NCBI GenBank assembly: GCA_036172245.1
Contig: JAYWIR010000076.1
Span: forward strand, 186,001 to 250,000
Source: Raillietiella orientalis
Lineage: Eukaryota
Length of the DNA stretch: 64,000 bases
Direction: 5' to 3'
Shown here one piece after another: positions 17,352 through 63,407 of the stretch. Each line of letters starts with the position of its first letter. The first letter of the stretch is position 1. The notes beneath the pieces are model-generated. The model worked only from the letters and a program-made list of their open reading frames with translations. It was not told the DNA's origin and did not search any database. The position numbers and the translations under genes are program-made.

Positions 17352-19850
17352 AACGTCGGCCGCTCCCGAGTATTCCAGGCCCTGGCCGTCGAGTAGACAA
17401 GCCGCTCCTGACTGCCAGAACTGGCGCTCGGCCTTGGCTTTGTACTCCGCAAGGTATCGGACGTCCGGGCATTAGGAGAATCGTCTGGCCTGCAGAAACT
17501 CTCTGTTGTTGTCCACTCCTGTCCACAAGCCACGGAAAAGCAGGCGCAAAAGGAAACGGCAGCAGAACTCGCGGACCGATCTTTTCAGATCGTCCCAGTC
17601 CACGAGCGAGAGCGAACGGGTTTTTGTTTCGCTCTTTAGCGTGTGTGGTTTTATTTTATTTTTTTTTTCTTGGTGTGCCAGTGGATTCGGTGTTGGCTAG
17701 GCAGCAATGCCTGGCACCACCACCAATGTGGAAGAGGGGGCGACGTCTATGTCGCCTCCCGAATCAATGGATGTGGGGGCAACCGCTTCCACAGAAGCGA
17801 CTCCCTCGCTAGGGAGAAGCTGTAGTTCCGTGGCTGCTTTGCCAACGCAAGCGGCTGCGGCTGAATTGAAAGCCTACCTGGAAAAGGGGTACAATCCCCC
17901 TCTACTCTACAAGGAAGCTAACCTTTACTCCTTTGAGTGTACACGCGCTTTCTCGAAAGCGATGCACTCCCTCAAAGTACCCCAAGAGGAGCTCTTGGCG
18001 ATGACCATCAAAAGTGGTGGACAGTACGCTGAGGTGATTTGCAGAGAAGCAAGTCTTTCCCAGCGTCTGATTCGTACATTTGTTTCTTTGGGGAATCGCC
18101 GGCTCCTCCCCATCACGGAGGATAGATCTATCGTGATCCACCTCCTCGGAATCACCTTCCGGATGGCCGAAGAGGTTGTCCGAAAGGATTTAATTAAATT
18201 CGAAATTGTCCACGCGTTGTGGAAAAAGCCGACTTTGTTTTGAGAGTACGGTCTCCTGAATCCCGGTATGAATTCCGCGCGCATTACGTTCCTCGAGGGT
18301 TGCTCCATACCAAACAAGCTGGAGGTCAACGGCGAATCCGTTGACATCTGGTATGTTGGTAAGCCGCATTTCTGCGGGCATTGCAGCACTTCACGTCACC
18401 TGAAAAAAAGGTGCCCCCACTTGCAGTGCAACCAATGCAAGCAACCCGGGCACACTCTTCCAGTGTGCCCTCCAAATGAAGTCCGCTTCGCGTCCGCACG
18501 GAATGCGAAGAAGCGCGCGGCGAGAAAACGAAGAGTTCAGGCAGCCCTAAAGAGAGCCGCCGACAGAAACGCAACTATCTTGAACCAGGTGAAGGTCAGC
18601 TCCGAGATCTTGGAAAACTCGGACAAGGTCGAGGAGAACGGCCAGGAACCTGGATGGCAGGAAGTAGAATCCAAGAGGCAGAAAAGACTCAAGAAACCAA
18701 AGAAAATGTCGCAAACCTCAACCAAAAATTGCCGCGCCGCGAAAACATCAAACGCTGCTCTGTCGTCATCAAGTGCATTCCTGCGGTCCAAGAGAGCGTC
18801 AAAATTGCACTCGTGGCTGCCGACTCTCAGCCCTCCGGCAAATGAGTGACGGAGGCTATTTACCCGACGGTGGCGTCCGTCGTCGAACGCATGCTCGACG
18901 ACGGCGCCTTTGAGCGATGGGGGAAGGAGCTCGCTGCGTCCTTGCTGCGTCCCCTTAAATCCGCGAAAAAGGCCTTAAGGCGTCCGACCTCGATCAAGAA
19001 GTCGGAGATTCCGAACTCTGACGCAAAGGCGGAAAACACAGCCTGCGGCATCGCGCCCTCCCGCCCGAAGGCCAATCGCACGAAGAAGGCTACCCGCAAA
19101 ATTATCCCGTCCATGGAAAAGGGAGAGTTAATTGGAAGAAGAGAGCGTGCGAATTAAGTGGGGAACTCCGGGGACTCTCCTCGAGAGGTAACCTCACGCT
19201 GCGACCCTGGAGGGAGGGAAAGGGTAGAGTCTGTGCCCCAGTTGCTTCAAGTGCCTGAGATGGCCGCGGCGCCCTTAATTGCCCCTCCAACCTGTCCCTT
19301 GACAAGTGCTGCAACGCCACGTTCCCAGCCTTAATGCCGGGAATCGCCTCTTGCTGCCGTCTGCGAATTGCCTGTTGGAACGTCAACGGGCTAAGCGACG
19401 ACGGCAATAGACGAGACGTGGCCTACACCCTGGCGTCGTTCGACCTGGTGCTGCTGCAAGAGATCCACGTGATCTCCGCAGATGAAGCAACGGAGATTTC
19501 TCACCCGGTCATGCCGGGGCGTTTATTCCATATAACATAACGAAAAAAAGCAATTATACAAAATAAACCAGTTGGGAACCAAACTCCCAACCGACGACTG
19601 AACAAGAATGAAGAGAACATTGCTGACACGCAGGCCAGAGTAACAGTTTCTTGAACGGTGTGGGGGGGCGGGAAACACAAAGAAACCAAACTAAAATAAA
19701 AACAATGAATAAGGAGGACGGGATAAGAGTCTTTGGGATCGCTCTGGAAGACACGGGGATAAAAGCATGGGCACCGGAAATTTCACCGAGCGAACGGGGA
19801 CGAAGTATGGGTGAGCGAGAGGTCCCAGGGGTCACCGGATTACGCCGTTC

Positions 19851-22800
19851 TCAAAGGTCTGTAAACCGGCGATGTATGCCGGTGATGTCCTCATTCACCT
19901 TGTCACGAAGATGAGACCACCTTGAAGCCTTCTCCATGAATTGAGATGCAAGCAGGTGAGCCTCCCTTCGCTGCGATGACAACTCCAGGGCGTAGCGGGC
20001 CTTCACGATGGCGCGAACGCAACACATGGTTGCGACAATCGCGCCAACCGAAAGTCCATTTCTGCTGAAGAAGCGCCGCAGCACATCAATGGCAGTGCCT
20101 CCTTGTGGCATGATGGCCGAAGTGAGCCTTCGCCACAGTTCCCGGAGGTCACCGCAGTCCAGCAAAAGGTGCGAAAAAGACTCGATCTCTCCGCACCTTA
20201 AACAGTTTGGCAAAGCAGCTCCCCCGGAAAAGATGCTTCGCTGCCTATTACAGTGAAATGCACAATGTAAAAAGAGCAGCACATCTTGTTTCCACTTAAG
20301 GGGGAACACGGAGCTGTCCAAACAAACGGGGGGAACCACTATCTCTCCGGGGGGCACACTTAAATGTTCGCTCCACCGAAGCAGTCCCTTCGCCCGATTC
20401 CGAGGTGTGGCGGCTTGCACCAGCTCCTTCGTCGTCCAGCTGCCGAGGAGCTTACTGACTCAACCTATTTTGCAGGAGAACTCCCATTCCGCCGGTAGGC
20501 AACCGTCGTTGCTTGCCCTGAGGGCAGACAGCGCTGCGGCGAGTGGTGTGGCGGCCAGACGATCCGACAACTTCTTGTCCTGCATGACTTCGTCCATTTG
20601 ATGACTGAGGAGAAGTCGCAGGCGTCGAAGATCTTCCGGGCGCGTTCCTTCGGAAGCTGCCCACGATGAAAAAGATTCCTGCCGTCATGCATTAATGTTC
20701 ATGGGGCGGCAGGAGATCCAGCTTTGGGCTTCCAGCAGTGAGGACAGCTGCCTCAGCGGGAAGCCAAACCCTATTCTGGTGTGCCGATAGTGGGGTAGCA
20801 ACGAAAGCAGTCCCTCGCTTCCCGTGCAGCGCCTCAGTATAAGGCGTGCGGGTAAGCACCACGGCGTACACCACAGCTTGGCACAGAGCCGCAGCATGCG
20901 AAACTGCACCTGCAGTTCGATGCTGTTTAAGTCGAGGATGCCCAAGCCTGCATCCCGACGCGGCGCCACCAAGTCTTTAAGTCTAACACGGGATCTTGCA
21001 GCGCCCCACAACGCTTTGCGTAGAAGGCGCTGCGCCCAGACTTTGACTTCCTGGGGGGGTGGAGAAACAAAAAACAGGGGGCGGAGGAGGGGGACAACGA
21101 AGGTGTTCCAGATGCAGGCCCGTTCCGGCAAGACGAACTCGCCTCCTGAAAACGGGCCAAGTGCACGCTCTGCCTTCCGAAGGCAGTCCGACCACGCTTC
21201 TGAGATGCAGAAGTCGCCCAACGGCACGTCAAGGTACCTGAGGTACCTGCCCGTGAAGATCCCCAGGTCGATCCAGTCGGACTGCCCCTCCCACGTCGCA
21301 CCCACTGGAACAACCATACACTTACTCCTGTTACCGCTCACGCCTGCACCGGGACGAATCAACTCAAAGAAGTCTTCAAGCGATGTCGCCCGGGTGGACA
21401 TGGGCAACAGAAGAAGCAGGTCGTCGGCATAGGCTGCCACGGCAGGCGTACCTAGACAGGAGCTCGGCAGGTTGGCTAGCGTCAGCCTGTAAGCCTCCAG
21501 CACAAATTCAAAATAGATGCTGAAGAGCAGCGGGCTTAAGCTGGCACCCTGCCTAATTCCTCGTCGTACCGGCACGCCGTACACGCGACAGCCACTGAAA
21601 ACAATGGATGTAATCGCGTGGCGCCAGTAGGAGCGCAAGTACGCCAACACGGATGCCGGAAGACCCAGACGTTCCAAAAGCTCAAGAAGAAGCTTTTGGT
21701 TCACGCAATCGAAAGCTTTGTGCAGATCGACTGCAACCGCCAAGGCTCCCGGTGTCTCCCTTTGCGTCCGGCGCCTCCGTCGGTGAGAGATCGAAGGCGT
21801 CGCTTCCGCACGACGATCCACCGCCACACGATGCTGCAATTGCAGCCATGTGCGGATGAACAAGAGATTCGCGTCCATGGACCGCCCAGGAACAGCGTAC
21901 GTCTGCTCCGGACTTACCAAGGATTCCGCGATCCTACCCATCCGCGCCACCCAAAGTTTCGAGAACAGCTTGACGTCCGAATTCACTAATGTGATTGGAC
22001 GCCAGTTGTTCAGTTGGCACAAATCTCCGCCTTTCGGCAGTAGACGCACCTTCGCTGAGCGAAACGAAGCGGGGACATCGCCCGAGTCTCGCATCAGCGA
22101 CGAGAGTTGGAGCACCAGGAAGATGAGCTCCGCCGCAAAACACTGAAAGAATTTCGCGGAAAGCCCATCTTCGCCTGGCGCTTTTCGTCTCTTGAGCCCC
22201 GAGATGGCCGAGGAAATTTCCTCTGCCGTGAAGGGCTCATCAAGACGCGCGCGTTCCTCCTCGTCTACAACAGGTGCATCAATCGGCAGAAGCAGCCGGG
22301 AGAGGCTGCGTTCCGTCGGTGCCTCTGCATACAGAGAAGAGTAATAGCGCCTGACTATCCGTCGCACGTCGGCTGGAGCCGAGCATTCCCGGTCCTGGTC
22401 GTCGAGCAGAACTGTCGCCCCTGACTGCCAGACCTGGCGCTCGGCCTTGGCCTTGTACTCGGATAATCGACCAACGTCCGCGCACCTGGAAAAGGAGCGG
22501 GCCTGCAGAAAATCTCTGCTGTTGGCTACGCCCTCTCCGAAGCCGCGCGGAAGCTGGTGCAAGGGAAACCGGCAGCAGAACTCGCGGACCGATCTTTTCA
22601 GATCGTCCCAGTCCTCGAGCTCACTTATGGCAAAGCCGAGGAGGTACTGGCGAAGATGCTCAGCCGCCTCCGGGTGGCTTAGCCAGTCTGCCGGCATCCT
22701 CTAAAAACAGTTTGGAGGCCCCTTGCCTGGCGGGAGCAACTCAAACTCGAGCCTGTTGTGGTCTGAAAGCACGGACGGCACGGGACCTCTCCGACCCACT

Positions 22801-23423
22801 CGACAGAGCAAGTGTTCATCAAGGTATACGTGGTCCGGCGTTGCTGCCATAACAGGGTCGCTAGCGAACAAGTTGCACGTGTGCACGGACGCGCACATCT
22901 CTTCCGCTAGCAACTTTTCCCTTTCGTGGGATCTATTCTCGGAAAGCAGGTGGACGTTAAAGTCCCCCGCAATGAGATGGGCCACAGTAGGGCGGGATCG
23001 AGTGAGCCACTGGCTTTGAAGGGTACCGAAGAACTCAATCCTTTCGGCCCATCGTCCAGCACCGCTCGGCGCGTACACGTTGGTTACGACAAGGTCGATC
23101 GAGTCGGACCACTTGAGTACAAGCTGTCCCACTCGGCCTTCCGTGTCGAAACGAACGCTGCGCACCATTCCCGCCAAAGTTCCTCGCACGAGGGAAGCGA
23201 CGCCGCACGTACGTGCAACGCCGCACCTATAAAGTAGCGTTCCGCCCGCGCGCCGTTCGATTTCGGCAGCCTGCTCTCCGGAGATGCTCTGAATCTCCTG
23301 CAGGAGCGTCAAGTCGAAGGCGCGCAGAGCGTCAGCCACTAGTCGCCTCTTCTCCTCGTGTTGGAGCCCGTTGACGTTCCAAGACGTTACGGCAACACGA
23401 CGAGAAGACGCGATTGCCCCCAT
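19851..23423 (-). pseudogene. D1 ORF2 (endonuclease-RT-Cys motif), with a stop at 22701-22703 and frameshifts after ~20690
   Basis: SWNVNGL, LQEI, AGDFNV, SDHN; 670-aa RT segment with YADD; CLRCGEIESFSHLLLDC. Confidence 0.93.
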
Positions 23424-25327
23424 CACGGCTGGGAAAGCGAGGCCGTGGTGCTCGCCTCACCCGGCGAGCGGGCAGTAAGCAGCACGACGGGCTGGAGGGC
23501 GCGGTCGCCACCGGCCTCAACTGTGCTGCACGTAATCGGGTGCTCCTCCCCGGGTGCAGAACCTGTGGGTTTTGAAGTAAGCACTCGCCGTTCCGCGACG
23601 AGTATGTCACGCCTCAGGGCTTCAGCCCTGCGGGCGCTCGCTCCCGCGCGAGTTACGCGTCGTTCAGCTGCGTTATCGGACTTTTTTGCGGAGTCTGATG
23701 CTCGCACGATCGACGTGCGCTTGCATCCGTCCGATTGCACCGGAATGGTCTTCTCGGCGGTCACAGAAGCGGACTTGCACACGTTGAAGGCGCTGGCTTT
23801 TTCCTTGGAAGAGTCACAAGCCCCGCGTGTTTTCGTATTCCCGCGACTGCTTTTTCCTTTGGAAGAGCTCAGGGATGGAGGTTGCGTAGCTTTTTTTGGA
23901 GATTTTTCTTTCCTCCTCTCCACAACCTTCCATTCGCCTTCCCGATTTTCGGAGGCTTCCGCGACAGTAGTTGCGGAAACCTCCGGGATTTTCGCTGCGT
24001 TCTCTGGGGGCGTTGCTTTCGCTACGCCTTTAAAAAACGGCAACGGAGTCACCTTCTTGACAGTCGGGAGATTGCTCCTCTCGTGCCGAGTCGGCGATGG
24101 GGCGACTGCATGCAGCGTGCTTTTGCTCGTCGCGACGCTGCTTTTTACTGCTTTCGTAGCCTTTGCAGTGGGGCCTGCACTGCAGTGGGGCTGTCCGGAA
24201 CTCCGAAGGGACAACGGAACGGGGCAAGAAGTCTTCGCACTGTTGCGATTTTCCTGTTTTCCTACCTTTCCCTCCAGGGTGTTACGGAGATTTCCTGGTT
24301 CCAGGCTCGGAAAGGTGCCTGCGAGTTCGGCAGAGAGGGAAGGCACGGCACGCGTCAAACCCTCGCGCCCCTTTTTAATTGGCTTCCCCGCCGTGACTTT
24401 CCCCTTTCGGGGCGTTGCGGGCGGGGATGCTTTCTTTTTATCCGCCGATCGCTCGTGGTTTTTTTCGAGTTTTTGCGGACGACGTTTTTTATTTGCCGCT
24501 GCGGCTTTTCGTGCAGTGGTCTCTTGAACCCGACGAATTTCCGCTGCGGCTCTTTTTCTTGCAAGTACCGGGCACTTCTTGATTTCGTGCCCGGAATCTT
24601 TGCAATAGCGGCATCTTGGAGAGGGGCACTCTTTAATTCGGTGCCCATCCTTGCCGCACTGCTCGCACGCGCGACTCTGGCCTATGAACCACAGGTGAAC
24701 GACCGTGCCGTTCACCTGCAGCTGCTCAGGCACAACACGCCTGTTCGCGACGGTGATCCTCGCGGAGGCTTGTCCACTGTGGACAGAGGGGAAATCCTTT
24801 AGAGGATTTGGCCTCCTCCACAGAGCGTGCACGGTGGCGAACTTCGCCAGCACACTTACGACATCGCGGTCGGAGATTTCCGGTTCGATGTCGCACAATT
24901 GAACGACAAAAGAGTCGTCCATCGCGGTAGGTAGGACTTCCTTGCCATTGATGGTCAACGGCGTACGGAGAAGGCGCTGCACAAGTGCTGCGTTCTTGCA
25001 CCGAATCTTCGTATAATCCATCCTGCCAGCAGGCATTATGGCAAGGAGTTCCTCCTCGCGAACGCCTATCCGGACGAGCTCATCATTGAGCTCACGACCG
25101 ATTCTCCCGTTAAGTGGCCCACTGACCTTATAACGGAGTGCAGGCATGTATCCTGATGACACATATGCCTGGAACTCCGCATCGCAGGGTCCGGGTCTTT
25201 GGGAGGTAACGACGGCGTAACTCCTCACCGGGGGCGAGGAAACCATTACGGAGGATGCGGCCACTTCAAGTGCAGCTGAAGTGCATCCAGTGGCTTGCTC
25301 CTCCACACTATCCTGTGTACTGGCCAT
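23423..25327 (-). CDS. D1 ORF1, 634 aa gag-like nucleic-acid-binding protein with two CCHC knuckles
   Basis: Open from ATG to TGA; CEQCGKDGHRIKEC and CRYCKDSGHEIKKC; the TGA overlaps the ORF2 ATG. Confidence 0.88.
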   Translation of the reverse strand: MASTQDSVEEQATGCTSAALEVAASSVMVSSPPVRSYAVVTSQRPGPCDAEFQAYVSSGYMPALRYKVSGPLNGRIGRELNDELVRIGVREEELLAIMPAGRMDYTKIRCKNAALVQRLLRTPLTINGKEVLPTAMDDSFVVQLCDIEPEISDRDVVSVLAKFATVHALWRRPNPLKDFPSVHSGQASARITVANRRVVPEQLQVNGTVVHLWFIGQSRACEQCGKDGHRIKECPSPRCRYCKDSGHEIKKCPVLARKRAAAEIRRVQETTARKAAAANKKRRPQKLEKNHERSADKKKASPPATPRKGKVTAGKPIKKGREGLTRAVPSLSAELAGTFPSLEPGNLRNTLEGKVGKQENRNSAKTSCPVPLSLRSSGQPHCSAGPTAKATKAVKSSVATSKSTLHAVAPSPTRHERSNLPTVKKVTPLPFFKGVAKATPPENAAKIPEVSATTVAEASENREGEWKVVERRKEKSPKKATQPPSLSSSKGKSSRGNTKTRGACDSSKEKASAFNVCKSASVTAEKTIPVQSDGCKRTSIVRASDSAKKSDNAAERRVTRAGASARRAEALRRDILVAERRVLTSKPTGSAPGEEHPITCSTVEAGGDRALQPVVLLTARSPGEASTTASLSQP

Positions 25328-28300
25328 GTTGCACTATGCTACTTGGCAGATTGCACAGGAACACATAAGTGCGAGCAAAAACGCAGGCACAAAGTTGCCC
25401 GATCGTTGGCGCGGATAGACGCGGAAACACGTCTGCACAGTACGAGTGCAGGAGATCGAGCGTATCTCGGGTGGAAGGCTGCTGTGGCGTTGCTGCACCG
25501 TTAAATCTTGCGGTGACGCGTTCTTGCTTCGTCCAGCTGTAGAGGCTCCGGCAAAGGGCGTGGAGTTCGATAGTGCCGGTCGCGTCATGCAGTTGAACAT
25601 CAGGTGGTCCGACTCCATCCATCCGGTCCTTACCAACGTGTACGCCTGAAGCGGCAGCGACGCGCTAAGGGCAAAGGCGCGGAGAGATTTCTTCCTTACC
25701 CTGAGGCGTGAATATCTGGACGGAGCGGGAGTGCGCAAAGCGCACCTAGTCGCAGGTGACTTTAACCTGCACCTGCGGTCAGGTGCGTCCGACACTCTTC
25801 GGAATCGCGTGAACGTGCTGTGCGCAGAGATGCACACGCGCAACTTGTTCGCGGGAGATCAGGAAATCGCCGACTGCATAGATCACGTGTTCCTTGACCA
25901 GCACCTATGCTCACGCGTGGGCAGGCGCGGCAAGTTCCCTTCGAAACTGTCGGACCGTGACCGGATCGTACTCGAGGTGCGCCCACGCGATTAGGGAACC
26001 CCGTCATCTGCGTGGCGCTTAGTAAAAAGGCTTAGAAAAAAAATTCTACTCCTACCTGTACGCGCGCTTCACTGGAACAGGATGTCTCGCGACTTCTTCT
26101 TCCGGAAGGCGCTCCGGCGATCGGGGAGGAAGATAGAAAGTCCCTCGACGAGCCTTTGACGATGGGCAAGATCATCTCGGCCATCTGAAAGCTCAAGAGG
26201 CTAAAGGCTCCAGGGGAGGACGGCCTGCCAGCGGAATTTCTTTAATGTTTCGCGGAAGAGCTCACTACTCTTGTGAAGAAACTCACCTTGCTGATCCGCG
26301 AAACGGACGACGTCCAGGCCTCGTTTCGTTAAGCAAAGGTGCGTCTCTTCCCTAAGGGAGGAGACCTTCGGACCGTGAGCAACTGGCGGACTAATACCGT
26401 GATAAACGCGGACGCCGGGTTGCAGGCGAAATTGTAGGCTGAACGCCTGCGGCGGTTAGCGGAAAGCTTCATTAGCCCGGAGCAGACATATGCTGTTCCC
26501 GGGCAGAGCATGGACGCCAACCTGTTCCTCGCCAGCACCTTTCTGGCGCTACAACAGGAAAGGGTCAGGGTATGCAACCGGACTTCCGCAATGTCCGCCG
26601 CTAGTCAACGGGACGGTTGGTGAGGGGAGGGAGCCCTCGCAGTCGCAGTCCATTTGCATAAAGCATTCGACTGTGTCGACCAGAGGATCCTGCTGGAGCT
26701 CCTGGAACGCTTGGGCTGCCCGGTATCCTTGCTGACCTACCTGCGATCCTGCTGGCGCGACGCGCTCATCCACATCTTTTTCAGTGGACACACCGTGCAC
26801 GGCGTACCGGTGCGACACGGCATACACCAGGGAGACATCCTGAGTCCCTTGCTCTTCAGTACTTACTTCGAGTTGGTACTGAGAGCGTACAGGGAAACTC
26901 TAGCGCACCTGCCGAGCGAATATTTCGATGCGCTTGCGGTGTCAGGATATGCAGACGACCTACTGCTGCTGCTCCCTATGTGCACCCCGGCATCGGCGGT
27001 CGAGGAGTTCTTCCACCTGCTAAGTCGGGGAACCGGGATAGAGGTGAACAGGGCGAAGTCGTCCGTCATGGCAAACGGTGCGGCGTCGGCAGGGCAGCCG
27101 GACTGGCTCCGTTTGGTGATTTCCACGGTACGGTATTTGAAGTACCTCGGTGTACCCAAGGATAATTATCTCCTTTGGGATGCGTGGTCCAGCTGCCTTC
27201 AAAAGAGCTCGGTAGAGCGGCTGGAGCTCCAGCTCCAGTTTCGGTTATTCGCCCTAGTGGCGAAATATTGGAGAAGGAGCTGGTGCGATCCCGCACGTCT
27301 CCTTGTCGAAAAGGCTACAGGCAATGTAGGACTGTCATCCTTCCTTGCGCTCCGTCGTCGCCGCCAAGGCGGTCACTGCGGGTTGCATCTGCAGAGAGTG
27401 GCTCACTTGATGAGGTTGAACGCAGGATGGCTCTGCTGTCGCCCCGTTAACATACCTGCATTGCTGCACGAAACGGTTCAAACGTGGGCAAGGAGCAACC
27501 AGCAACGCACTCAAGAAGGGCAGAGACAATTCCTGGCCCGTAATGACCGCCTGGCGCTCCAAGAGTTCCTGGAGAACCTCCAAAAACAAGCGTGAGCAAG
27601 AAAAACTCCCCTCACTGCAATGCTGTTTTCGCTCGGGGAACATTTAAACGGCAACACTGCTGCGCAATAGGTTGTTTATGTAAAAATCTTTTGCACGGAG
27701 AAAATGATCGTGGAATGGAAAACGGGAATTCTCTGCGATACCGCGGCCTGGAGTACCACCCCTATTGGACTTTTGCGCTGAAGAGAGCTGCTAAATGTTA
27801 CGCGGGAACAATTATGATTGCCCCTGTAGCTGATGAACACCTCCACCCTCCTCTTAAAATGGCAGGAGGCGGCGCTATTCTTGCTGAATTGGGGACTTCC
27901 ATGAAACGCTTGTCGACACCATTGGAACTAGGGAGCGGTGAACCCTAATTGTGCGAGGTGTGGAGAACGGGAGTTCCTCACTTACCTCCTTTTGGATTGA
28001 GTGGCTTTTCGGTCCCTTTGGAACCGTTTTGTCGCGGCAATCGGTATCCCCTGTAGCAACCCCAGAGACGTAGTTAGATGCCTCTTCGTTTGCGACGCCC
28101 TTCTGCCATCGGCCTCGTTAGCAGCTCTGTGCTGCTATCGCAGGATCGTCGCTGCATGGAGCGAAGCAACGGGAGGACCTCGCGATAAGTGTGCCGTCCA
28201 GTGAGCAGGAGAATTTATGTGGACGGCGACAGGATGGACCCTTCTGGAATCAAACATCCAATAACAGCTTGCCGGCATCCTGCAATGGATGTAACGGCCC

Positions 28301-28539: not shown

Positions 28540-29343
28540 ACGAGCTCTCGAACGGCCAAGGTTCGAAGATGCTGGCGGAGGTGCTCCGCAGCCACCGGAT
28601 TTCTCAACCAGTCGGCCGGCAACCTCCAGACGTGCGTCGGAGGGCCCTTGCCAGGCGGGAGTAATTCCAACTCCAGCCTGTGGTGGTCGGAAAGCTCTGA
28701 CGGCACGGGACCTATTCGACTTACCCGACAATGCAGGTGATCGTCGGGGAACACATGGTCCGGCAAAGCACGCATCACGAGATCGTCGGCTAGCAAATTC
28801 GACGCGTGCACGGACGTGCACACGTCGTTCATTATCCGTTTCTCCTGGCGACGGTGAGACTCCTCCGATAGCGCGTGGACGTTAAATTCCCCGGCTACGA
28901 CGTGAGTTACGTCGGTGCCGGAGTTGCTTAGCCAGCGGTCGCGCAGTCTCTCGAGAAACTCCTGTTTATCGGTGCGACGCGCGGAGCCGCTCGGCGCGTA
29001 CACGTTCGTGACGACAAGGTTGATCGATTCGTACCACTTGAGAACAAGTTTGCCCACACGACCTTCCTCGTCGAGACAAACGCTCCGCAGAGCTCCCGCC
29101 ACCCTACTCCGGACAAGGAATGCGACTCCGCAGGTATTCTGGGAGTTTGACCTCCAATGAAGCGTCCCGCCTGCGCGAACTTGCAGATCGGCCGCTTGCT
29201 GCTCGGAGAGTGAGAGAATCTTCTGCAGCAGGGCCAGATTGTAGTCGCGCAAGACGTTGGCAACCAATCCCTTCTTCTCTTTGTCCTGCAGCCCGTTGAC
29301 GTTCCAAGAGGCCACTCACGCGACGGGAAGCGAGACCGCGCAT
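28540..29343 (-). pseudogene. H ORF2 endonuclease domain
   Basis: ASWNVNGL, TNVYAPSG, AGEFNV, SDHH. Confidence 0.9.
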
Positions 29344-35323: not shown

Positions 35324-35403
35324 GAGGGAAAAACTGCAAATAAAAGGAAAAACAAGAATTTTCAAAGGGTAAATCTACAATGCACAAAACTAAACCTAGT
35401 AAA

Positions 35404-35595
35404 GTTAGGTTAAGATAGGATAAGGTAGGTTAAGTTAGGTAATGTTCGGTCAGGTAAGGTTAGGTTAGGGTGGCTTAAAGTAGGTTTTTAGGTTAGGTTC
35501 GGTTAACATGGATGAAGTTCGGTAGGTTAGGGTGGGTTAAGTTTGGTAAGGTTAGGTTGGGGTAGGCAAGGATAAGTTCGGTTCGGTTCGGTTCA
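35404..35595 (+). repeat. Degenerate (TTAGG)n-like pentamer tract
   Basis: GTTAG/GTAAG/GTTCG/GATAG 5-bp periodicity over ~190 bp. Confidence 0.8.
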
Positions 35596-43344: not shown

Positions 43345-46300
43345 GGTGCCTATGTAGAAAAGGGGTATAACCCATTGCTATTCTACAAGGTAGGAAATTT
43401 GTATTCTTCTGAGAGTGCGCGCGCATTTTCGAAGGGGATGCGCGCTCCCGATGTTAAAGAGGAGGAGCTCTGCGCTATGACCATTCGTAGCGGGGGGCAG
43501 TACGTAGAGGTGATCTGCAAACATGCAGATCTGGCCCAACGTCTGCTTAAAACCCCCGTGGTAATGGAGACACGCTGGCTCCTTCCCGTTACGGCGGACC
43601 ACAGTATGGTAGTCCACCTTTTAGGAGTTACCGCGCGAATGCGGAAAGAACAGTTACGCGCCGCGTTGGGAAAAGAAGGCACGGTCCATGTAATATGGAC
43701 CAAGCCTAGTCCTTTCGAGGAGTATACCACAGTTCAGTGCGGACTCACGGCTGCCCGTGTAACCGTTCGGGAGGGCTCTACCCTTCCCCACAAACTGGTG
43801 GTTGGCGGAGATAGCGTCGACCTCTGGTACGTGGGGAAGCCCAAATACTGTGGCTTCTGCAACACGTCAGGACACCTGAAAAGGAGGTGCCCCAGCGTAT
43901 AGTGCCTGGTATGCGGGACAATGGGTCACACGAGGGAAGTGTGTCCACAAACCGCTGTGCGCGTCGTTTCCGCGAGGAACCTAAAAAAACGCGCGCGGCT
44001 GCTACAGAAAAGGCTGGCAACGAAGGCTGCCGCTGAAGCTGTGCCACCCACTCCCGTGGTCCAGGCGTCAGCCGACACCCCGGCAACGAATGCCGAAAAG
44101 ATCAACAAAAGCGATCAGGTGTCGTAATGGCAAGAAGCCAAAGCAAAAAAGGAAAAAAAGTCGAAGAAAGAAAGACGAATTAAAAAAAAGCTCGCCTATT
44201 AAAATAAGAAACAGCAGCTTAGCGAGAATTTAAAAGAATGCAGCGTCGTCGTGGAACGCATTCCCGCCGAACGCCGCAAGCTAGAAATCGCTGCAACCGA
44301 CGAGCAACCCACTGTTGAAAATGTCAACAGCGTGAGGAGCGAACCGGCGGAAACGTCCGTCATCGAGACCGTGATCGATGACGCCGCCTTCGAGCGTGCG
44401 GCTGAGGAGCTGGCTGCATCGTTGCAGCCAGACCCCTCCAAGGCTGGCAAAAAGGCAGTGAGGCGTCCGGCCTCCACCGAGGAGTCGGTAACTTCCGACC
44501 CCGATGCGCAGGCCGGAAACCAAGTCTCCATCTCCGCGGCACCCCGCCGGAAGGCTGGAAGGAAGTCCAGCAAACCCCGGAAAGCCCCTCTCCAGGTCGG
44601 AGGCGTGAAGATGACTTCCGACTGCGAGGGTGCCATGAGCGTGGGAGAATCCCTGGAATCGTCACCCGAGAGACCACCACGAACAGACACGGAGGAGATG
44701 GAGGGGGTTGAAGCCGGAAAGGTACCCAAGGTGCCTGAGGAGGCTGAAACCCTAATGGTCATTTCACCCGCCTCGGAAGAGGCGGGTTCCCCCACACCGT
44801 CATCTTGACGGCAGTAATGCTTGGAATCTCCTCCCGCCGTCGTCTGCGCATCGCTGTTTGGAACGTAAACGGGATGACAGACGCCGGCTGGAGACAAGAC
44901 ATGGCCGCCCTTCTTGAGTCCTACGACCTTGCGCTGCTGCAGGAGATCCACGTGATCTCTGCAAAACAAGCGCAGGAGATCGAACGCATCTACGGAGGGC
45001 GGCTGTGGTATCGGTGTGGAACATCGAGAAGTTGTGGTGTCGCCTACCTGCTTCGGCCCGCCGTCGAGACCGCCGCCCGTGGATTTCGGTTCGACGATCA
45101 CGGTCGTGTCGGCCAGCTGACTCTCAGCTGGTCCGACTCGATCGACCTGATCGTTACGAACGTTTACGCCTTGAGCGGAGCGGACCTCACGAACAGGAGG
45201 GCCAGGAAAGAATTTCTCCTCGCCCTTTATCGCGACTGGTTGACCAAGGCAGGCGTGCAGAATGCCCATCTGGTTGCAGGCGATTTTAACGTTCGTCTAA
45301 CACCGGATGGGCCGAATCACGAGCGTGACCTGGTCAACGAGGTGTGCGAGGAGGTGCACACTTGTAATTTGTTGGCCAGTGTACCAGGGATGGAGGACAA
45401 CATCGATCACGTGTTCCTTGACGAGCACCTGTGCACTCGTGTGGGCAGGCGCTGCAAGTTACCGTGCGAGTTGTCCGACCATCGACCAATCGTGATTGAA
45501 ATCCATCCGCGCGACAGGGGCCCCCCCTTGTCAGCGTGGCGTTTTCCAGGGGACTGGCTGAAGCTCCTGGACGCGACGGAACATCTCCGCACGTTTATAC
45601 GGAGCTTTAGGATGCAGACACTTCAGGATTGGGACCGCTTCAAACGGTCGGTCCAGGAGTTCTGCGACCAGTTCCCTCTGCACCGCCTACCTGCGGGATT
45701 TGGGGACGGAGTACGTAACGAACCAGCCTATCTGCAGGCTCGCCGTTACGCCAGGACCCCCGACATCCGCAGGCTGGCGGAATACAAAGCGGGAGCGGAG
45801 ACGCAAGCCTGGCAGTCAGGATCGGCCAGCTTGCTGGACGATCAGGGCCAGGAGCTTTCGGCACCCGCTCAGATCCGCGGTCTGCTGCGGCTTTTTTACT
45901 TCTCCCTGTACGCAAGAACGGCTCCCGAGCGGGATTTCTCACGAATCCTGCTTCTAAAAGGCGCTCCTGCGATCGGGGAAGAAAAGAGAAAGTACCTCGA
46001 CGAGACTTTCACGATGGGCGCGATCATCTCGGCCATTGGGAAGCTCAAGAGGCGAAAGGCACCAGGGGAGGACGGCCTGTCCGCGGAGTTTTATCAATCT
46101 TTCGCATCTGAGCTAACCCCCCTGGTACATCAACTCACCTTGCTGATACGCGAGACAGGTCACGTTCCCGCCTCGTTTCGTTCGGCAAAGGTACAGCTTC
46201 CTTCTAAGGGAGGAGATCTGAGGAGCATGAACAACTGTCGTCCCATCACAATAGTGAATGCGGATGCCAAGTTGATAGCTAAGGTTTCGGTTGAGCGCTT

Positions 46301-48622: not shown

Positions 48623-51165
48623 GCATTGCCGAAACCTGGAGGAAGTTGATGAAGGGGAAACTGGTCACAGAACTCTCGGACTGAGCGTTTTATTTTGTCT
48701 AAGTCAGCGAGAGTCTGCAGTTCACAACTACGCAGGAATGCGCGCAGATTTTCGCGCGTTACTGCGAGTCGCAACCAGTCCTCAGGCAGACGCCACGCTT
48801 CGGAGGGTGGACCTCTGTAGCGCGGATGAATGTTGATCACTAGCCGAGGATGATCGGACAGCTCCGACGCAATTGCCCCTCGAGTCCCCACCCGCGTACA
48901 CAAGTGGTTATCGAAGAACACGTGGTCGATTCTGCTTCTCACCCCGGCTTCATCGGCCAACAAGTTGCGTGTGTGCATAGCCGCACACAACTCGTTGACC
49001 AATTGTGCTCGTATGTCGGGCGCTTCCGACAACAGGCGGACGTTGAAGTCTCCCGCTATCGAATGCGACCGCCGCACGCCTGCTTCGGCCAGCCAGTCTC
49101 TCCGCAGGGCTTCGAAGAACGCAGTGCGTTCTGCGCGCCTGTGGCTGGTGCAGGGCGCGTACAGGTTCGTGACTACGAGGTCGATCGATTCGGACCACTT
49201 AAGGACAAGTTGTCCAAGTCGACCTTCCTCGTCGAACTGTGCACTGCGCACCGCATTGGCGACGGCTGGCTTCAGCAGGAAGGCCACTACGCGGGAGTGG
49301 TCTCCTCCACCACGCCAAAGTAGTCTTCCCTTGTGAGCCTCTCGATTTCCTGGACGTCCTCTGCTCTGAGGGCATGCACCTCTTGGAGAAGTGCCAGGTC
49401 CAAAGGTCGCAGGGTGTGGGCCACGATACGCCTCTTGCTTTCGCTACGCAGCCCGTTGACATTCCAACAGGCTATACGCAGCTGCCGGCAAGAGGCGATC
49501 CCACGCATCATACTAGTGACGGTGGTGGCGTGTGTATTGCCGCCTCCTGTTCGGGAGGCGGCTGGTCGCTGTCCATCTGCGGTGGTGGCGTTTCGGCAAC
49601 GACCGGAACATCTGCAGCCGGACTGCAGTCTATAGGGAGGACCGATCGGATGCTGTCGATAGAGGGATCCCGCGACCTCGCGGACATCGCCTCCTCGCTA
49701 TCCGAGCGCATCTCCTCCACCTCAGCCTGAGGGGGAGCGACGCGCATAGGGTTGCGCGACTTCCGGCCCGCCTTCCTCTTCGGAAGGACGACGGTGGGAG
49801 GGTTTCCGGCTTCCTCCTCGGACCCGGAAGTTTCCGGGCCCTTAACTTCCGCCGGACATCTGACGGCCTTCTTTGCAGCCTTAGGCGGCTGCATTAAGGT
49901 GGCCGCGAGTTCCTCCGCCGCCTTCGCGAAGTTTTTCTCGTCGCTGCTGCTCGCGTGTTTGTCGCAGGATTCCTGCGGCGGTTCCGCGGCGTTCGCGACG
50001 GTTGCGGGAGTCGCGTTCGCCGATCGACGCTCGATCGACGGAACGCGCTCGATTGTAACGCGGCATTCCTTTATGGATCCGCGCGGCGAAATTTTTGGTT
50101 TGCCGACCGCGGGCTTTTTCGGAACGCTCGCGTTCTGATTTTTTGAGTTTTTTGTGGGGATTTTTTTGTTTTGTTTTCAATTTGTTTGGGTTTTTTGCCG
50201 GAGACGATTTTCCAGCCTTCCTCGTCGGCATTTGGATCAGTAGTCTTTTTTTGAGGCTCCTGCTTCTTGTGCACGACTTCTTCTAAAGTTAGCTTTCCAT
50301 CGCTCTTTGCTTTAAATTCTGCCTTCTTCCCCTCGTTTGTCGAAGGGGCTGAAGGCGTTGTCGCGGCGTTTTTCGGGCACACAGCACTAGTATGGCCCTT
50401 CGCGCCGCAGGTTGGGCATGTGGCATCCGGGCATCTCTTTTTAAGATGCCCGAATGTGTTGCACAGTCCACATTATTGTTCCTTCCCCACGTACCAGAGG
50501 TCGACAAGCTCGTCGTTGACTTCAAGCTTGTGGGGAAGTTCTTTGTTTTCGCGAAGAGTTACGCGCGCGGCCACTCGCCCACTGAATGCGCCTCGATAAG
50601 TAAAGGCGTTGGGCTTTGACCACATCGCGTATATCTCCGCGAATTTGTTGATTTCAGTGCGGATGGCTTCATCGGTCATCCGCACCGTTGTACCCGTGAG
50701 GTGGATCACCATTGATTGATCCACCGTGTGTGGGAAAAGATTCCGCCATTCGAACGGAACGGGCGTGCAGAGCAGTTTGTGTGTGAGCGCCGCATCTTTG
50801 CAGATCAGCTCCGCGAACTGCCCGCCGCTCCGAATCGAGAAGCAAAGAATCTTCTCGTCAGAGATTCCCATCCTACGGATGGCGTTTCCAAATTTCCGCG
50901 TTGTAAGCGGTGAATAAAGATTTCCTACCTTGTAAAGGAGGACTGGGTTGTAGCCCTCCTTTATGTAGGCCTGCATTTCGGTGACCACTTCCGGCGGAGC
51001 CGCCGCGGCCACCTTGTTCCACGCCCTCGCCGGGGTGGCGGGGACTGATTTTCTGGTGGGGCATGACCCCACCTCCATAGGTTAGGGAGACGTGGACCTC
51101 ACGTCTCCCGTCGGAGGAACTGCGGCGTCTTCAGGCATTTCTGCCTTCCAACGGCCGCACTTCCG
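48623..51165 (-). mobile_element. B-like element B': ORF1 and endonuclease, truncated at LPPGFG by G2
   Basis: ORF1 GYNPVLLYKVGNLYSPL resembles 12722 onward; TGATG at 49510-49506; CWNVNGL, AGDFNV, SDHP. Confidence 0.85.
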
Positions 51166-54747: not shown

Positions 54748-56767
54748 CGAGCGGACGTGTTTATCCTTCGCTCCCCAGTGAGTAGACAGGAAGCGGTTTT
54801 TTCTGTGCTGTTTTTGGTGTGGAACATCGTTGGTTTCCGATGGCAGAGATGCCTAAAGGCATTACGATGGAGGTAGGTGTAAGGGAGGCTTGCACACCCC
54901 CAAAGCCTACAGAATCAGAGGCGTCCGCCTTGGAATCGCCTTCGCCGCCCAAGGCGAGGAGCTGGAGCGCCATGGTGGCCGCGCCTAGCGCGGAAGCCAT
55001 GGCCGAGATGGCAGCCTAATGGGCAACTGGGTGCAAGCCCAGCCTGGTGTACCAGGTAGGCAATCTCTTTGACGGGCGTACTGCACGCGCTTTTTCGAAG
55101 GCGCTGCAGAACGTCAGCGTTTTAGAGAAGGATCTTGACGGTCTATCCGTGTTCAGCGGGGGTCAGCGCGTAGAGGTTGTCAGCAAGGACATCACCGTTG
55201 CGCAAAGCTTGATTACTACCCTGCTAAACGTGGACGGACGCAAGATCCTGCCATTCACGTTCGACCGCTCCGCAGTGGTCCATCTGACTGGGATCACCAG
55301 CCGCATGACGCGGTATGCGGTTGGTGATCAGCTGAAAAAATACGGCGAAGTACACGCGCTATGGCCAAAGGCCACAATCTTTGATGGCTACGATAGCCTT
55401 TTCGGAGGGCAGTCCGCCGCGCGTGTCACGGTGAAGAAGGATAGTGGGCTTCCCCACAAACAAGAGGTCAATGACGAAGTCGTAGACCTCTAGTACGTGG
55501 GAAAACCCCAATATTCTGGCTACTGCAATGCAGTAGGACACCTTCGTAAGAGGTGCCCTAACATTGTGTGCCACTTATGCGGAGAGAAGAGCCACGTGCG
55601 CAGCGTGTGCCCTAAACGCCCCACTCCGGTGCCACCTGCTGGAAAGAAAGCGCAGGCAAAACGCGGAAAATTGGTCAAAAGAGCAAAACGAGATACTGGC
55701 CGGCAACAGTCGCAAGCCCCCGTTCCTCCCACACTGGATCCGCTTCTTCGGAAGAAACACCTTCCGAAGAAGCGGGAGACCAGGACGGCTGGCAGCTGGT
55801 GATGGCCAGAAAAAAGAAAAAGGTGCCCCCCGCGGAACCCGCGAAAGCAGTGAAAAAGACAGCCGGCAAGGCAAAAAAACCTGGGCCGCGCTGCAATACC
55901 ATGCGGGAATGTATAGTGGCACTGGAACGCATAGCCGTTCCCGAGACTGCCACCCGGGGCGACTAGCCTTTCCTCGCCGTTTCCGCCGCGCCCTTGGTTC
56001 GCGAATGCGATCCCTCTGTTTACACAGAGGGTGAGCCGCGCGAAATAGTGAAGGTCGAAGCCGAGGATGCCGCGTTCGCGCAGACGGCGGAGAAGCTCGC
56101 GGCCACGCTGGCCGAGCGTGAGAACCCCTCGCGCAAGGCAGTGCGAAGGCCGGCTCAGCCTAAGAAGGCCCCCGAAGGTGAGATCGACCTGAGCCGGAAG
56201 TGCATCCTTCTCCTCGAAGGCAGCCCCCAGGAAGTCGGCACTTATTCCCACAAACCCAGGAGGCGCCTCCCGTCCACCAGCGAGGAGGAGAAGCAGGAAG
56301 GTAGCATGAGCGTGGGAAACCCGGAGGTAGAACTCCCACGCTCGGAAGCCGTCGAGCGGGCCACCTCCATGGAGGAAGGTTAGCAGGGGGCGAAATCCTC
56401 CCTGAAGTCGTCGAGCCTGAACAGGCCGCTTTCTTGGAGGAGGGCCAACAGCTAGGCGCGACCTCACCTGAGGGTGACCCTCTCGACGCGCCGTTACCCA
56501 TAGAGGAGGGGGACCAGGTGCACTCAGCTACTCACCCTCCGTCTCCACCTAGCGTGTCCCCTCAACAGGTGGCGGACGCCGCATCGCCATCTTTCCAGGA
56601 GTAACACCTAAGCTCACCCGTTGCCGTCGGATTCCCGCCGCCTGTTGCAACGTCAACGGGCTGCGTGACGACGGTAACAGGAGAAATACGGCCGACACCC
56701 TGCGTGAGCTCGACCTGGCTCTGCTGCAGGAAATCCACGTGATCACCGCGGCAGACGCCCAGGAGAT

Positions 56768-59700
56768 TTCTCACTCGGTCATGCCGGGGCGTTTATTCCA
56801 TATAACATAACCAAAAAAACCAATTATACAAAATAAAACAGTTGGGAACCAAACTCCCAACCGACGACTGAACAAGAATGAAGAGAATAGTGCTGGTACG
56901 CAGGCCAGGGTAACAGTTTTGCGAACGGTGTGGGGGAGCGGGGAACACAAAGAAACCAAAATAAAATAAAAAAAATGAATAAGAAGGACGGGATAAGGGT
57001 CTTTGGGATCGCTCTGGAAGACACGGGGATAAAAGCATAAGCACCGGAAATTTTAGCGAGCGAACGATGACGGGGTATGGGTGAGCGAGAGGTCGCAGGG
57101 GTCACCGGATTATGCCGTTCTCAAAGGTGTGTAAACCGGCGATGTATGCCGGTGATGTCTTCATTCACCTTGTCACGAAGATGAGACCACCTTGAAGTCT
57201 TCTCCATGAATAGAGCTGCAAGCAGGTGAGCCTCCCTCCGCTGCGCTGACAGTAAGCAGTTTGGCCACAGGGCCGGCGCTTGCCCAACGTATCGTTGATT
57301 CCGCTGCGGCTAAGTAGGACATCAAGTCCGAAACTGCCCGCAGCCGGAGGTGTGCTTCTTCTGCAAGAAACACGGACATGCCAAATGGAGCTGTCCGGAG
57401 TTTGCAAACTGCAGAAGGATTCGAGGTCTCTCTCCCGTAAGAGAGAGAAACACCAAGGAGGTGGAACAGGCTCCGAAGGCAGGATGGCCGAGGAAGGTGA
57501 AAGATGCCGTCCCGGTATCGGAAGACGGCTTCATACAGGTAATGAAGAAAGGAAAGAGGAGGATGCTCGTCAAGGAGCAAGAAGCTCTTCTTAGCCTGGA
57601 AGGTGAAGAGCAAGAAGGCGAGAAGATGGAGGTGGCGCAGGAAGGCGCGGAAGAAGAAATAGCCGAAGCCACTTGGTGTCGCAGGAGGCCCTGCAATCTA
57701 CTAACGAGCTGGCATCACTGGCTAATGAAGTCCTAGAGGTGCAGAGCGGTCCCCAACAAGAGAAAATCTTGCAGAAGTTCTGCAATGCACAGGAGAAGGT
57801 CAACCAGGCTGTGGAGGTCACCGAGCGCGAGAAGCTAGAGGAACAGCTTCTCGACGTAAAAGCGAACTTCTGCGCCGAGGTCGAGATAGAGACGCTATCT
57901 CGAAAACTGATCGGGTGGGCCGAACACTTGACGGAGGAGGCGGAAGTTACCAACCTCATCGGAACAGAGAGTGACGCCGGCAGCGAGAAGCCCGCTGCTT
58001 CTTCATTGTCTGGAAGAGCACGCTCTCTCAGACAGAAGAAGCTCAGGAAGGCCAAGAAATAGGTCTTCCTTTTTTATGGCCTCTTCACTATAGACCGCCA
58101 GAAGGCTGAACATCGCCTCCTGGAATGTAAACAGTGTGGTCGACCAGCGAAAAAGAAAAAGGACTGTGCGGACCATCGCACAAGACATAGCGTGCCTGCA
58201 GGAGACCCACAAGATGGGTCTCGAGATTAGTCAGCAAATGGAACGGCGACTCAACGGGCAGATGTTCTTAACGAAGGAGAACGCAACACGAAGGGTGTGG
58301 CGGTGCTAATAAAGAACCACTTAGCCCCCACTATTCTGGAAGTGTTCTGTCCTTAACCCGGACGAATCATCGGCGTGCGACTGGCCTGGTCCGCTACTGT
58401 TCACCTCATCCTGGTGAACGCGTACGGGCCGCACAGGCTGAAACATCGTAGTGCGGAGGCGCTGCATGCAGCACTCCGTGAAAAGCTTGCCCTTAAGGAC
58501 GTCGTGATTGTTGCTGGCGATCTCAACATATTGGATGTGATCACTCACTCCCTAGACGCCAGAGGAAGGACGGCGTATCGGCGGTTATCCGAAGAGTTCG
58601 GACTGGTGTGGCGAACTGGAAGTCACAAGCCGAGCGATCACGTCCTGCACAGCACCGAACTTGGGAATCGCATCTAGGGTTTTCGAGACATTATGACCAC
58701 GGTGTCCGATCAACCCCTGGTGCGGTTTTACTTCAGAACGGAGAATCCTCGGCAACGCAAGGCACCAGGGCGGCGCTCATCAGCATGCCCGCCTGGTTCG
58801 AAACCCATAACGGACATCAGGCTGTCCTAGAGACGATTCTGAAGGCAACAACAATCCGAAGAGTCGCCGACTGGGATAGCCTGAAACACAGGATACACCT
58901 GTTTGCAAACATTCGGTTCGGGAATAGGTGCTTCAAGCAGAAGGCGTACCGGTAGCTGAACATTCAAGATCGCTCACTCGCAAAGTACTTCGATCAGTAC
59001 GAGAGTCGGTACGACTTCAAGAACATAAAAGGGGAAGTCGGTGTGCTGGAGAAGAGAAATCTGGCAACAGATATCTTCTGCATCCAGTACGACGGTCAAA
59101 AGCAACAGTCGTCTGAGGACATCGTGGCTGCCTTTCACAGGCATTACACGAAACACTTCAGGCGACAACAGCTCTGTCGCTCTAGTCAACAGGCCTTTCT
59201 TAGCTACCTCGAGAAGAGGACCGACGATCTCCAGCGAAACAGATTGGAGGAGGAATTCTCCGAAAACGAGGTGAAGACTGCGTTTGGTCAACTGCGCAAG
59301 GACGTGGCAGCGGGCCCTGACAGCGTACCCATCACTCACTATCAGCGGTACCTGCATGCCTACCTGCGTTTGTTCCACCATTTGACCCTCTGCAAACGCG
59401 AAGAACGAAGACTTCCACAGTCTTTCTACAAGAGTCGGATGAGATTGTTGCTCAAAGGAGGCGACCTCACGCAGGTCGCTCAATGGAGGCCAATCTCGAT
59501 CCTGAACTCCGATGCCAAGTGGTTGGCGAAGATCTGGTCCAACCTCTTAGGCAAGGTCATGTCGAGGCTCATCTCTCCGGTACAAACGTGCGCAGTCCCT
59601 GGACGTCACATGTCGGACGATGTCAAGTGTGCCCAGGCCAGTGTCGGACTCGGCCGATACGTCGGCGAGAACCTGGCGCTAGTGTTCACTGACATGGAGA

Positions 59701-62700: not shown

Positions 62701-63095
62701 CCTCGAGAACGCCGATCCGGACGAGCTCATCATTGAGCTCACGACCGATTCTCCCGTTAAGGGGTCAACTGACCTTATAACGGAGTGCAGGCATGTATCC
62801 TGATGACACATATGCCTGGAACTCCGAATCGCAGGGTTCTGGTTTTTGGGAGGTAACCGCGGCGTAACTCCTCACCGGGGGCGAGGAAACCATTACGGAG
62901 GATGCGGCCGCTTCAAGTGCAGCTGAAGTGCATCCAGTGGCTTGCTCCTCCACACTATCCTGTGTACTGGCCATGTTGCACCATGCTACTTGGCAGATTG
63001 CACAGGAATACACAAGTGCTAGCAAAAACGCAGGCACAAAGTTGCCCGATCGTTGGCGCGGATAGACGCGGAAACACGTCTGCACTGTACGTGCG
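56768..63095 (-). mobile_element. Element D2: 3' end (56768-57251) and 5' end (61731-63095); interior replaced by X
   Basis: CAGGAGAT at 56760-56767 and 63096-63103; both ends closely match D1. Confidence 0.9.
57252..61730 (+). mobile_element. Divergent L1/Tx1-type element X: partial ORF1 and ORF2 at 58076-61588, disrupted
   Basis: CFFCKKHGHAKWSC; ASWNVNS, LQETH, AGDLN; QWRPISILNSDAK, GVRQGDSL, AYAHDL; CTACGDIDTRLHVLTC; AATAAA + CCCC..GGGG end. Confidence 0.9.
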
Positions 63096-63407
63096 CAGGA
63101 GATGGAGACGATCGCGGGTGGTCGGTTGTATTGGCGATGCGGCCTCCGCAACACCTGCGGGGTCGCGTTCTTCGTGAAGCCAGCGATAGACGCTGCCGTG
63201 AAGGGCGTGCGCTTCGATGACGACGGTCGGATCGGTCAGCTGATTCTCAGCTGGTCCGACTCGATCGACCTAATCGTCACAAACGTGTATGGCCATAGCG
63301 GCAAACAGGGGTACCGCGACCGCACCAGGCTGCTGGAAACCCTGAAACGCGACTGGCTGGCGGATACCAAAGTGCGAAAGGCTCACCTGATAGCGGAGAT
63401 TTCAATC

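Follow-up and report, generated by a model that had tools for sequence, protein, structure and literature searches.

Antisense insertions of one LINE family at a single endonuclease codon of other LINE families in a retrotransposon nest of Raillietiella orientalis

The stretch of Raillietiella orientalis DNA analyzed here (contig JAYWIR010000076.1, positions 186,001 to 250,000 of the forward strand; 64,000 nt, hereafter the window) contains two copies, D1 and D2, of a family of long interspersed nuclear elements (LINEs), family D, each of which interrupts, in antisense, the endonuclease (EN) of another LINE family at one and the same codon. The two interrupted hosts are designated C and E, and the labels X1-X9, F, and Z likewise denote LINE families or copies of the window. 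We conclude that D is probably a target-specific LINE of the L1 group with an apurinic/apyrimidinic (APE)-type endonuclease, the target being a conserved coding motif (Glu-Ile/Met codons) in the EN of other LINE families. True sequence specificity had been proposed in an initial annotation of this DNA, and it is supported by the same base, orientation, and 6-bp duplication in two diverged hosts, as well as by three junctions in contigs of a public run.

Both D1 and D2 are inserted after the second base of the Ile or Met codon in the EN sequence ...(T/Q)-E-I/M^E... (the caret marks the point of insertion), approximately 12 codons after the catalytic LLQE motif of the host APE endonuclease. The site reads LLQEIHVISADEATE-I-ERISGG (ACG GAG AT^C GAG) in host C and LLQEIHVITAADAQE-M-ETIAGG (CAG GAG AT^G GAG) in host E. 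Removal of D together with one GGAGAT restores LLQEIHVISADEATEIERISGG in host C and LLQEIHVITAADAQEMETIAGG in host E, in both cases with an open EN frame and with no gap relative to the other families. The junctions, duplications, and restored frames were read directly, and the placement of D antisense at the same endonuclease codon (GGAGAT) in C and E, as given in the initial annotation, is confirmed by them. The same annotation had described the repeated sequence in host E as the 8-mer CAGGAGAT, of which the 6-bp duplication stands, whereas the additional CA is not duplicated; on the right side, CA is the 5′ terminus of D itself, since D1 also ends in ...GTGCA before GGAGAT and the left flank of host C has AC there. 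Homologous sites that are empty were found in X2 (GCG GAA AT^C) and X5 (GCC GAA AT^C), in addition to those collected in Table 1.

The two copies begin at the same 5′ base (TGCAC... in D1 and TGCGC... in D2, in the sense of D), and both finish in ...CCG(G/A)GTGAGAA, without poly(A). The end ...CCGGGTGAGAA abuts the duplication directly, and the poly(A) or A-rich tail expected of the L1 group was not found; the AATAAACG-hairpin motif terminates all families here. D1 and D2 are identical at 449/484 positions (92.8%) of the 3′ part and at 1294/1367 positions (94.7%) of the 5′ part. D2 had at first been treated like a full copy, which proved wrong: its 4.1-kb interior is replaced by the unrelated LINE F, and only the 3′ 484 nt and the 5′ 1,367 nt match D1. 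The arrangement of F in D2 suggests that F inserted with loss of a large part of the target, and the 3′ end of F follows the same plan (AATAAA, a CCCC...GGGG hairpin, and AAAAC).

The hosts of D1 and D2 are clearly different elements. To the left of the site, C and E are identical at 21/30 positions (70%) and at 95/129 alignment columns (73.6%); to the right, the corresponding values are 19/30 (63%) and 133/200 (66.5%). In the next 282 columns upstream, which cover the end of the first open reading frame (ORF1), identity is 135/282 (47.9%), and the ORF1 regions of C and E give no meaningful alignment. At the protein level, the first ~150 EN residues are 52% identical between C and E, 60% between C and X6, and 54% between E and X6, while the EN of D is 46-52% identical to those of hosts C, E, and X6 and 56-65% identical to those of its relatives X1, X2, and X5. 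The view that the hosts are distinct and do not stem from one duplicated event thus holds (flanks 63-74%, upstream 47.9%, D 92.8-94.7%). Recombinant hosts with one shared junction, designated beforehand as the outcome that would contradict two separate insertions, were looked for and not borne out, as flank identity is well below that of D; with D copies at 92.8-94.7% and host flanks at 63-74%, one ancestral junction or a recombinant host is not tenable. Both D junctions fall outside an inverted segmental duplication of 4.3 kb (13649-17957 versus 55479-51167, 88% identity), which has C on one arm and E on the other. This duplication spans nested LINE pieces, i.e., an E-like 5′ end, X4, an old-element fragment, and a C-like 5′ untranslated region (UTR), and ends inside LINE copies; X7 (48604-51500, minus strand) is a chimera that arose via the duplication and is C-like only in its first ~340 nt.

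Further junctions were found in contigs of one public run (termed run X1), which contains the stretch (share 0.52); runs X2 and X3 gave 0 and 4 contigs, respectively, numbers that are not evidence of absence. The run contigs on positions 19300-25650 total 139, with 14 at ≥99%, 24 at 95-99%, 41 at 90-95%, and 60 at <90% identity. Since contigs at 94-98% identity cover the D interior, which D2 lacks, further D copies exist. Contig ends at the 3′ boundary of D, with 25-30 letters of flank each, occur among the matches listed (6 of 88 loose contig ends). One contig has a 25-nt flank that ends in ...CAA GAG AT^D and matches the X6 site at 44951 with 2/25 substitutions; it therefore represents a D copy in a host of the X6 family, whereas the X6 copy of the window is empty. 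In two others (agreement 0.87), the flank translates as P-V-V-S-Q-Q-T-E-N-E-I^D, has no match in the window within 7 substitutions, and represents a further host family, absent from the window and again interrupted at this codon. The other three contigs have loose ends before position 19370, where host similarity starts, and a crossing into D is not discernible in them. Among the matches listed, all D 3′ junctions (5/5, including 2/2 in the window and 3/3 in contigs) are antisense at the EN codon, in at least four host contexts. The constant 6-bp GGAGAT duplication is seen for both in-window copies; contig copies show one side only. Unrelated flanks at other D copies, which would have spoken against specificity, were looked for, and none were found among the matches listed, where three contigs end at the same EN codon.

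Two kinds of rearranged D-like sequence were also seen in run X1. In one contig, the terminal 30 nt of D are joined directly to position 20471 (19527/20471), so that 943 nt are skipped; it may derive from D by deletion or come from a relative whose 3′ region is shorter. In two D-like contigs, a break falls at 21969, within the reverse transcriptase (RT) codons RPITLVN and preceded by ~126 unrelated letters; it may mark the insertion site of another family in D-like copies.

The coding content of D was analyzed using D1. Its ORF2 is interrupted only by the in-frame stops TAG at 22703, TGA at 20687, and TGA at 20462, and no frameshift was detected; D is thus slightly decayed. A variant genetic code as the reason for the in-frame stops was rejected, since these include TAG as well as TGA, and since ORF1 and ORF2 themselves terminate in TGA. 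Pfam matches include the endonuclease domain Exo_endo_phos (PF03372, E 3.7e-10, 40.4 bits versus the cut-off of 24.5) and the RT domain RVT_1 (PF00078, E 2.7e-19), whereas zf-CCHC in ORF1 (E 0.0018) and zf-RVT at the C-terminus of ORF2 (E 0.0088) are weak matches, both below the cut-off. In an alignment of four families, the APE active-site motifs WNVNG, LLQE, GDFN, and SDH (N, E, D/N, and D/H residues) are invariant, and D retains intact EN and RT motifs. Among solved structures, the closest to the D RT in a sequence search is human L1 ORF2p (1.3e-38, versus 1.4e-14 for R2), and the closest to the D EN is the human L1 EN (5.2e-06). On this similarity of RT and EN, D can be placed among the APE-type retrotransposons without long terminal repeats (non-LTR), in the L1 group. 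A protein search with the D RT gave 9 matches, the best with 59% identity (a metagenome contig) and the others with 28% or less, and no further D copies among them.

In-frame stops of this kind are visible elsewhere in the nest. ORF2 of X6 (44817-48400) has four in-frame TAG/TGA stops and no frameshift, the same pattern as in D1. The differences among the public-run contigs are mostly transitions, and the observed/expected ratio of CpG is ~1.0 in the nest and 0.76-0.79 in the stretches of low G+C content (1-3500 and 31400-35600).

The 3′ terminus of D1 recurs in other families. Its last 27 nt (AATAAACG, CCCGG-N5-CCGGG, and TGA) were found at the 3′ ends of D1, D2, X5, and C (4 matches, with a chance expectation of 0), and looser forms of the hairpin motif are present in X1, X2, X6, and X9. 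Folding of the 60-nt 3′ ends of D1, D2, X5, and C was not unusual (z between -0.97 and -1.50); the putative hairpin motif is supported by conservation and not by thermodynamics. A metagenome scan for this motif yielded 7 loci, none of which is similar to D proteins by tblastn, and these were rejected as chance matches; scans of a genome-contig and a viral-contig collection with the D 3′ end gave 0 matches each. Over the whole window, Rfam detected 0 families and a tRNA scan 0 genes, and hence no 5′ ribozyme was detected. A 5′ UTR motif, G(C/T)GGACGTG(T/C)TT, occurs ~10-20 nt from the 5′ end in several families (25420-25440, 63408-63425, 54745-54765, and 6400-6415) and may be an initiator or an internal promoter element.

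The insertion of D can be pictured as follows. A bicistronic D RNA would be translated into the ORF1 protein and then, via the ATGA stop/start overlap, into the ORF2 protein, which would bind D RNA at the conserved 3′ motif (AATAAACG, the CCCGG-N5-CCGGG hairpin, and TGAGAA). The EN would nick the sense strand of the host LINE after ...GA(G/A)AT, and the freed 3′-OH would prime cDNA synthesis from the terminal A of the D RNA (target-primed reverse transcription), so that D and its host would run in opposite directions. The GGAGAT duplication would arise from a second nick at a distance of 6 bp, and the D copy would be finished to its fixed 5′ end. The junction sequence fits target-primed reverse transcription.

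Several observations weigh against the target specificity of D. The occupied hexamers vary (GGAGAT in C, GGAGAT in E, AGAGAT, and CGAAAT), GGAGAT itself occurs 65 times in the window (41 + 24), so that recognition must extend past the hexamer, and the X6 site is identical to an occupied one, CAGGAGAT^C, yet empty. Insertion thus neither follows from the hexamer alone nor strictly requires it, and the constant feature is position within a conserved coding context; five sites are too few to define a discriminating recognition motif. Only five junctions are available in all, three of them from 25-30 letters at contig ends. D1 has no stop-free ORF2, with its three in-frame stops, and D2 is gutted; thus, there is no demonstrably active D copy among those seen. 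An AlphaFold model of the D EN, based on a four-sequence alignment, had a mean predicted local distance difference test (pLDDT) score of 60.4, too poor for a fold search. By analogy with R1 and Tx1-clade elements, the APE endonuclease, and not another part of the particle, would be what reads the site.

Instead of a sequence-specific nick, insertion might be guided by homology, with read-through D transcripts or cDNA carrying a host-EN flank that anneals to a related EN. All hosts do share a conserved stretch around the site, e.g., CACGTGATC located 20 nt upstream in C, E, and X6, and downstream target sequence in read-through transcripts aids the precise insertion of some site-specific LINEs; both points speak for this alternative. 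Nonetheless, divergence between the D1 and D2 flanks begins immediately outside the 6-bp duplication (identity 21/30 to the left, 19/30 to the right), and the contig flanks are different again, so that no flank was copied along with D; moreover, pairing between the 3′ end of the D RNA, GAGAA, and the primer end ...GAGAT is limited to the terminal A:T. We consider homology-guided insertion unlikely. The spread of one ancestral D insertion by gene conversion or ectopic recombination, or through recombinant hosts that inherited one junction, has less in its favor still and is very unlikely. Recombination does happen in the nest, as the 4.3-kb inverted duplication (88%) ends in LINE copies and makes X7 chimeric, but this duplication excludes both D junctions, and conversion tracts would bring donor flanks, whereas flank identity is 63-74% up to the junction versus 93-95% inside D. 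Furthermore, each in-window D copy has its own matching 6-bp duplication, and the X6 family has an empty site as well as a D-bearing copy; LINEs do not excise.

It is barely conceivable that LINEs merely pile up in this region without sequence preference and that two D copies share a site by accident. The nest is deep, other families are inserted at many host positions (ORF2 ~aa 268, 357, and 443 of one old element), and many junctions were inspected for the initial annotation. By our own arithmetic, however, the chance that a second, independent insertion into a ~6-kb LINE would hit the aligned base again, and in the same orientation, is ~1 in 12,000 for each extra coincidence, and base, strand, and duplication length agree in two hosts; with three contig junctions at the same codon, which are distinct from D1 and D2 as their flanks are unlike C and E, chance becomes negligible. 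Equally improbable is an assembly artefact, in which mis-joined repeats would place D only seemingly inside EN. The region is highly repetitive, and none of the listed contigs spans the whole stretch, but the host frames close exactly around the 6-bp duplications at two loci, and separately built public-run contigs show D/EN junctions with other flanks. Target specificity of D thus remains the reading that we prefer, and the features on which it is based are listed in Table 1.

Table 1. Features of the D copies, their hosts, and homologous sites (positions of the window; the caret marks the point of insertion or its homologous position)
Feature	Position	Strand	Basis
D1, full-length family-D LINE, 5,953 bp	19498..25450	-	GGAGAT duplication and alignment to D2
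GGAGAT target-site duplication adjoining D1 3′ end (host C codons GAG AT-)	19492..19497		read directly in sequence
GGAGAT target-site duplication adjoining D1 5′ end	25451..25456		read directly in sequence
D1 ORF1, 634 aa, putative CCHC knuckles, long basic tail; TGA stop overlaps ORF2 ATG (ATGA)	23423..25327	-	ORF list and sequence
D1 ORF2, one frame, 1,190 codons: APE endonuclease, RT, putative C-terminal Cys/His region	19851..23423	-	Pfam
D1 3′ terminus AATAAACG-CCCGG-N5-CCGGG-TGAGAA, without poly(A)	19498..19527	-	motif common to other window families
D2 3′ part, 484 nt, 92.8% identical to D1	56768..57251	-	alignment
D2 5′ part, 1,367 nt, 94.7% identical to D1, 5′ terminus as in D1	61731..63097	-	alignment
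GGAGAT duplication, left copy of D2 (host E)	56762..56767		
GGAGAT duplication, right copy of D2 (host E)	63098..63103		
F, distant LINE (27% identical to D ORF2), 5′-truncated within ORF1, in D2 interior	57252..61730	+	
Host C, left part: 5′ UTR, ORF1, first 55 EN codons	17608..19497	+	
Host C, right part: rest of EN, RT, 3′ end ...CCGGGTGAAAA	25457..28539	+	
Host C antisense in older LINE, ACGAGC duplication	17602-17607 and 28540-28545		
Host E, EN N-terminus up to D2 site	56604..56767	+	
Host E, EN continuation, cut again near GDFN codons by plus-strand LINE Z	63104..63401	+	
Empty homologous site in X6: GCG CAG GAG AT^C GAA CGC	44970..44987	+	
Empty homologous site in X7: CAG GAA AT^C GAG AGG	49338..49352	-	
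D1's own homologous site, unoccupied: GCC GAA AT^C GAA CGG	23253..23267	-	

The window as a whole is a dense nest of related non-LTR retrotransposons, with a G+C content of ~0.53-0.59 over most of its length and two stretches of lower G+C content, 1-3500 (0.41) and 31400-35600 (0.46). A tblastn search with D proteins detected pieces of many elements on both strands. The only repeats at ≥78% nucleotide identity are D1/D2, the 4.3-kb inverted segmental duplication, and one 0.3-kb piece; the window therefore holds at least 10 different families. A 449-codon Ser/Pro-rich ORF with a C2H2-like stretch (1047-2396), located in the flank with 39-41% G+C, is the only candidate non-LINE gene seen.

Other insertions within the nest were also characterized. 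Three families are inserted antisense in one old minus-strand element (pieces at ~4040-30700), at ORF2 ~aa 443, 357, and 268, and all three sites start with ACG: ACGCATCAGCGA (12 bp; 6376-6387/12357-12368), ACGTCGGC (17353-17360), and ACGAGC (17602-17607/28540-28545). Among the insert/host pairs that could be oriented, 8/10 are antisense. A second interruption of the EN of host E lies at or beside the GDFN codons (GCGGAGATTTCAAT, 63396-63410) and is due to Z, a D-related plus-strand LINE whose ORF1 is 50% identical to that of D; Z runs off the window, and its junction is ambiguous within ~8 nt. The closest relative of D in the window, X5, shares the last 27 nt of D and ends head-to-tail against the 5′ end of X6 (43112-43200), and ATCTCC, 6 nt further along in the flank, is a possible D-like target. 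The 40 nt past the X5 3′ end (43142-43180) were considered as a possible antisense EN fragment entered at a second GGAGAT, but blastn-short gave no EN similarity; they are more simply read as the 5′ UTR of X6.

The nest might be the work of a guild of many LINE families (at least 10 below 78% nucleotide identity in 64 kb), several of which would each have a conserved coding motif of the other families as its own target, mostly in antisense. If so, LINE-only, G+C-rich, and possibly centromere-like islands would grow by cross-family hyperparasitism, and not by Zepp-like self-targeting. The hints are the three families antisense at ACG sites of one old element and the EN of host E cut twice (by D2 and Z); we regard this extension from D to a guild as rather doubtful.

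Target-specific LINEs of several kinds provide points of comparison. Tx1L inserts in the Tx1D transposon. One publication lists transposons among the targets of sequence-specific LINEs and names Tx1 and R1 as APE-encoding target-specific clades (PMC4640811), and another describes specific cleavage of both target strands by the EN of R1Bm (PMC1919474). Examples of target-specific LINEs in the Tx1 and R1 clades are R1Bm in 28S ribosomal DNA and Keno in U2 small nuclear RNA genes. Like these, D encodes APE and RT, enters a multicopy sequence at a single defined base, with a short duplication and an orientation that are both constant, and has a defined 3′ end. Unlike them, D has as its target the coding sequence (EN) of other autonomous LINEs, in antisense, and no fewer than three to four families share this target, with only 52-60% identity between their proteins. 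In the full-text literature searches made here, no LINE described as directed at the EN codon of another LINE was found.

LINE-in-LINE nests are described for Zepp/ZeppL of green algae, where passages of the sources report nests formed by insertion into existing copies and G+C-rich clusters (PMC8226300, PMC3446292), with a G+C content of 61% for Zepp versus 53% for the genome (PMC3446292). Cnl1 of Cryptococcus is described as preferring insertion within itself, in tandem (PMC9942834). The nest studied here is likewise G+C-rich (~57% versus 41-46% in the flanks). Zepp/ZeppL and Cnl1 insert in tandem into copies of their own family, of which mostly 5′-truncated 3′ ends remain, whereas D enters other families (EN identity 46-52%) in antisense and at one codon, and both of its copies reach the full 5′ end. 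The Zepp/ZeppL-type pattern, i.e., same-family tandem insertion, mostly 5′-truncated, was tested on D and not found, and the passages on Zepp and Cnl1 give no base-level target. With human LINE-1 ORF2p, the nearest solved structure for both RT and EN, D shares the order of EN, RT, and a region that in D is putatively Cys-rich. Human L1, which carries a poly(A) tail, prefers TTTT/AA only loosely. The site of D, in contrast, is fixed, and the 3′ end of D bears a conserved hairpin motif and no poly(A).

Site-specific LINEs are rare and are studied as models of DNA reading by an APE endonuclease and as leads for targeted gene insertion. Each D insertion breaks the ORF2 of a competitor, harms no host gene, and helps to build LINE-only nests. 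A LINE with a safe harbour in the constrained EN codons of its competitors would, if the target specificity of D is true, be a clear case of transposon-on-transposon parasitism, in which the target would stay conserved, through protein constraint on the hosts, among families with only 50-60% identity. Under the same proviso, targeting by D would provide a concrete mechanism for LINE-only nests like those at some algal centromeres.

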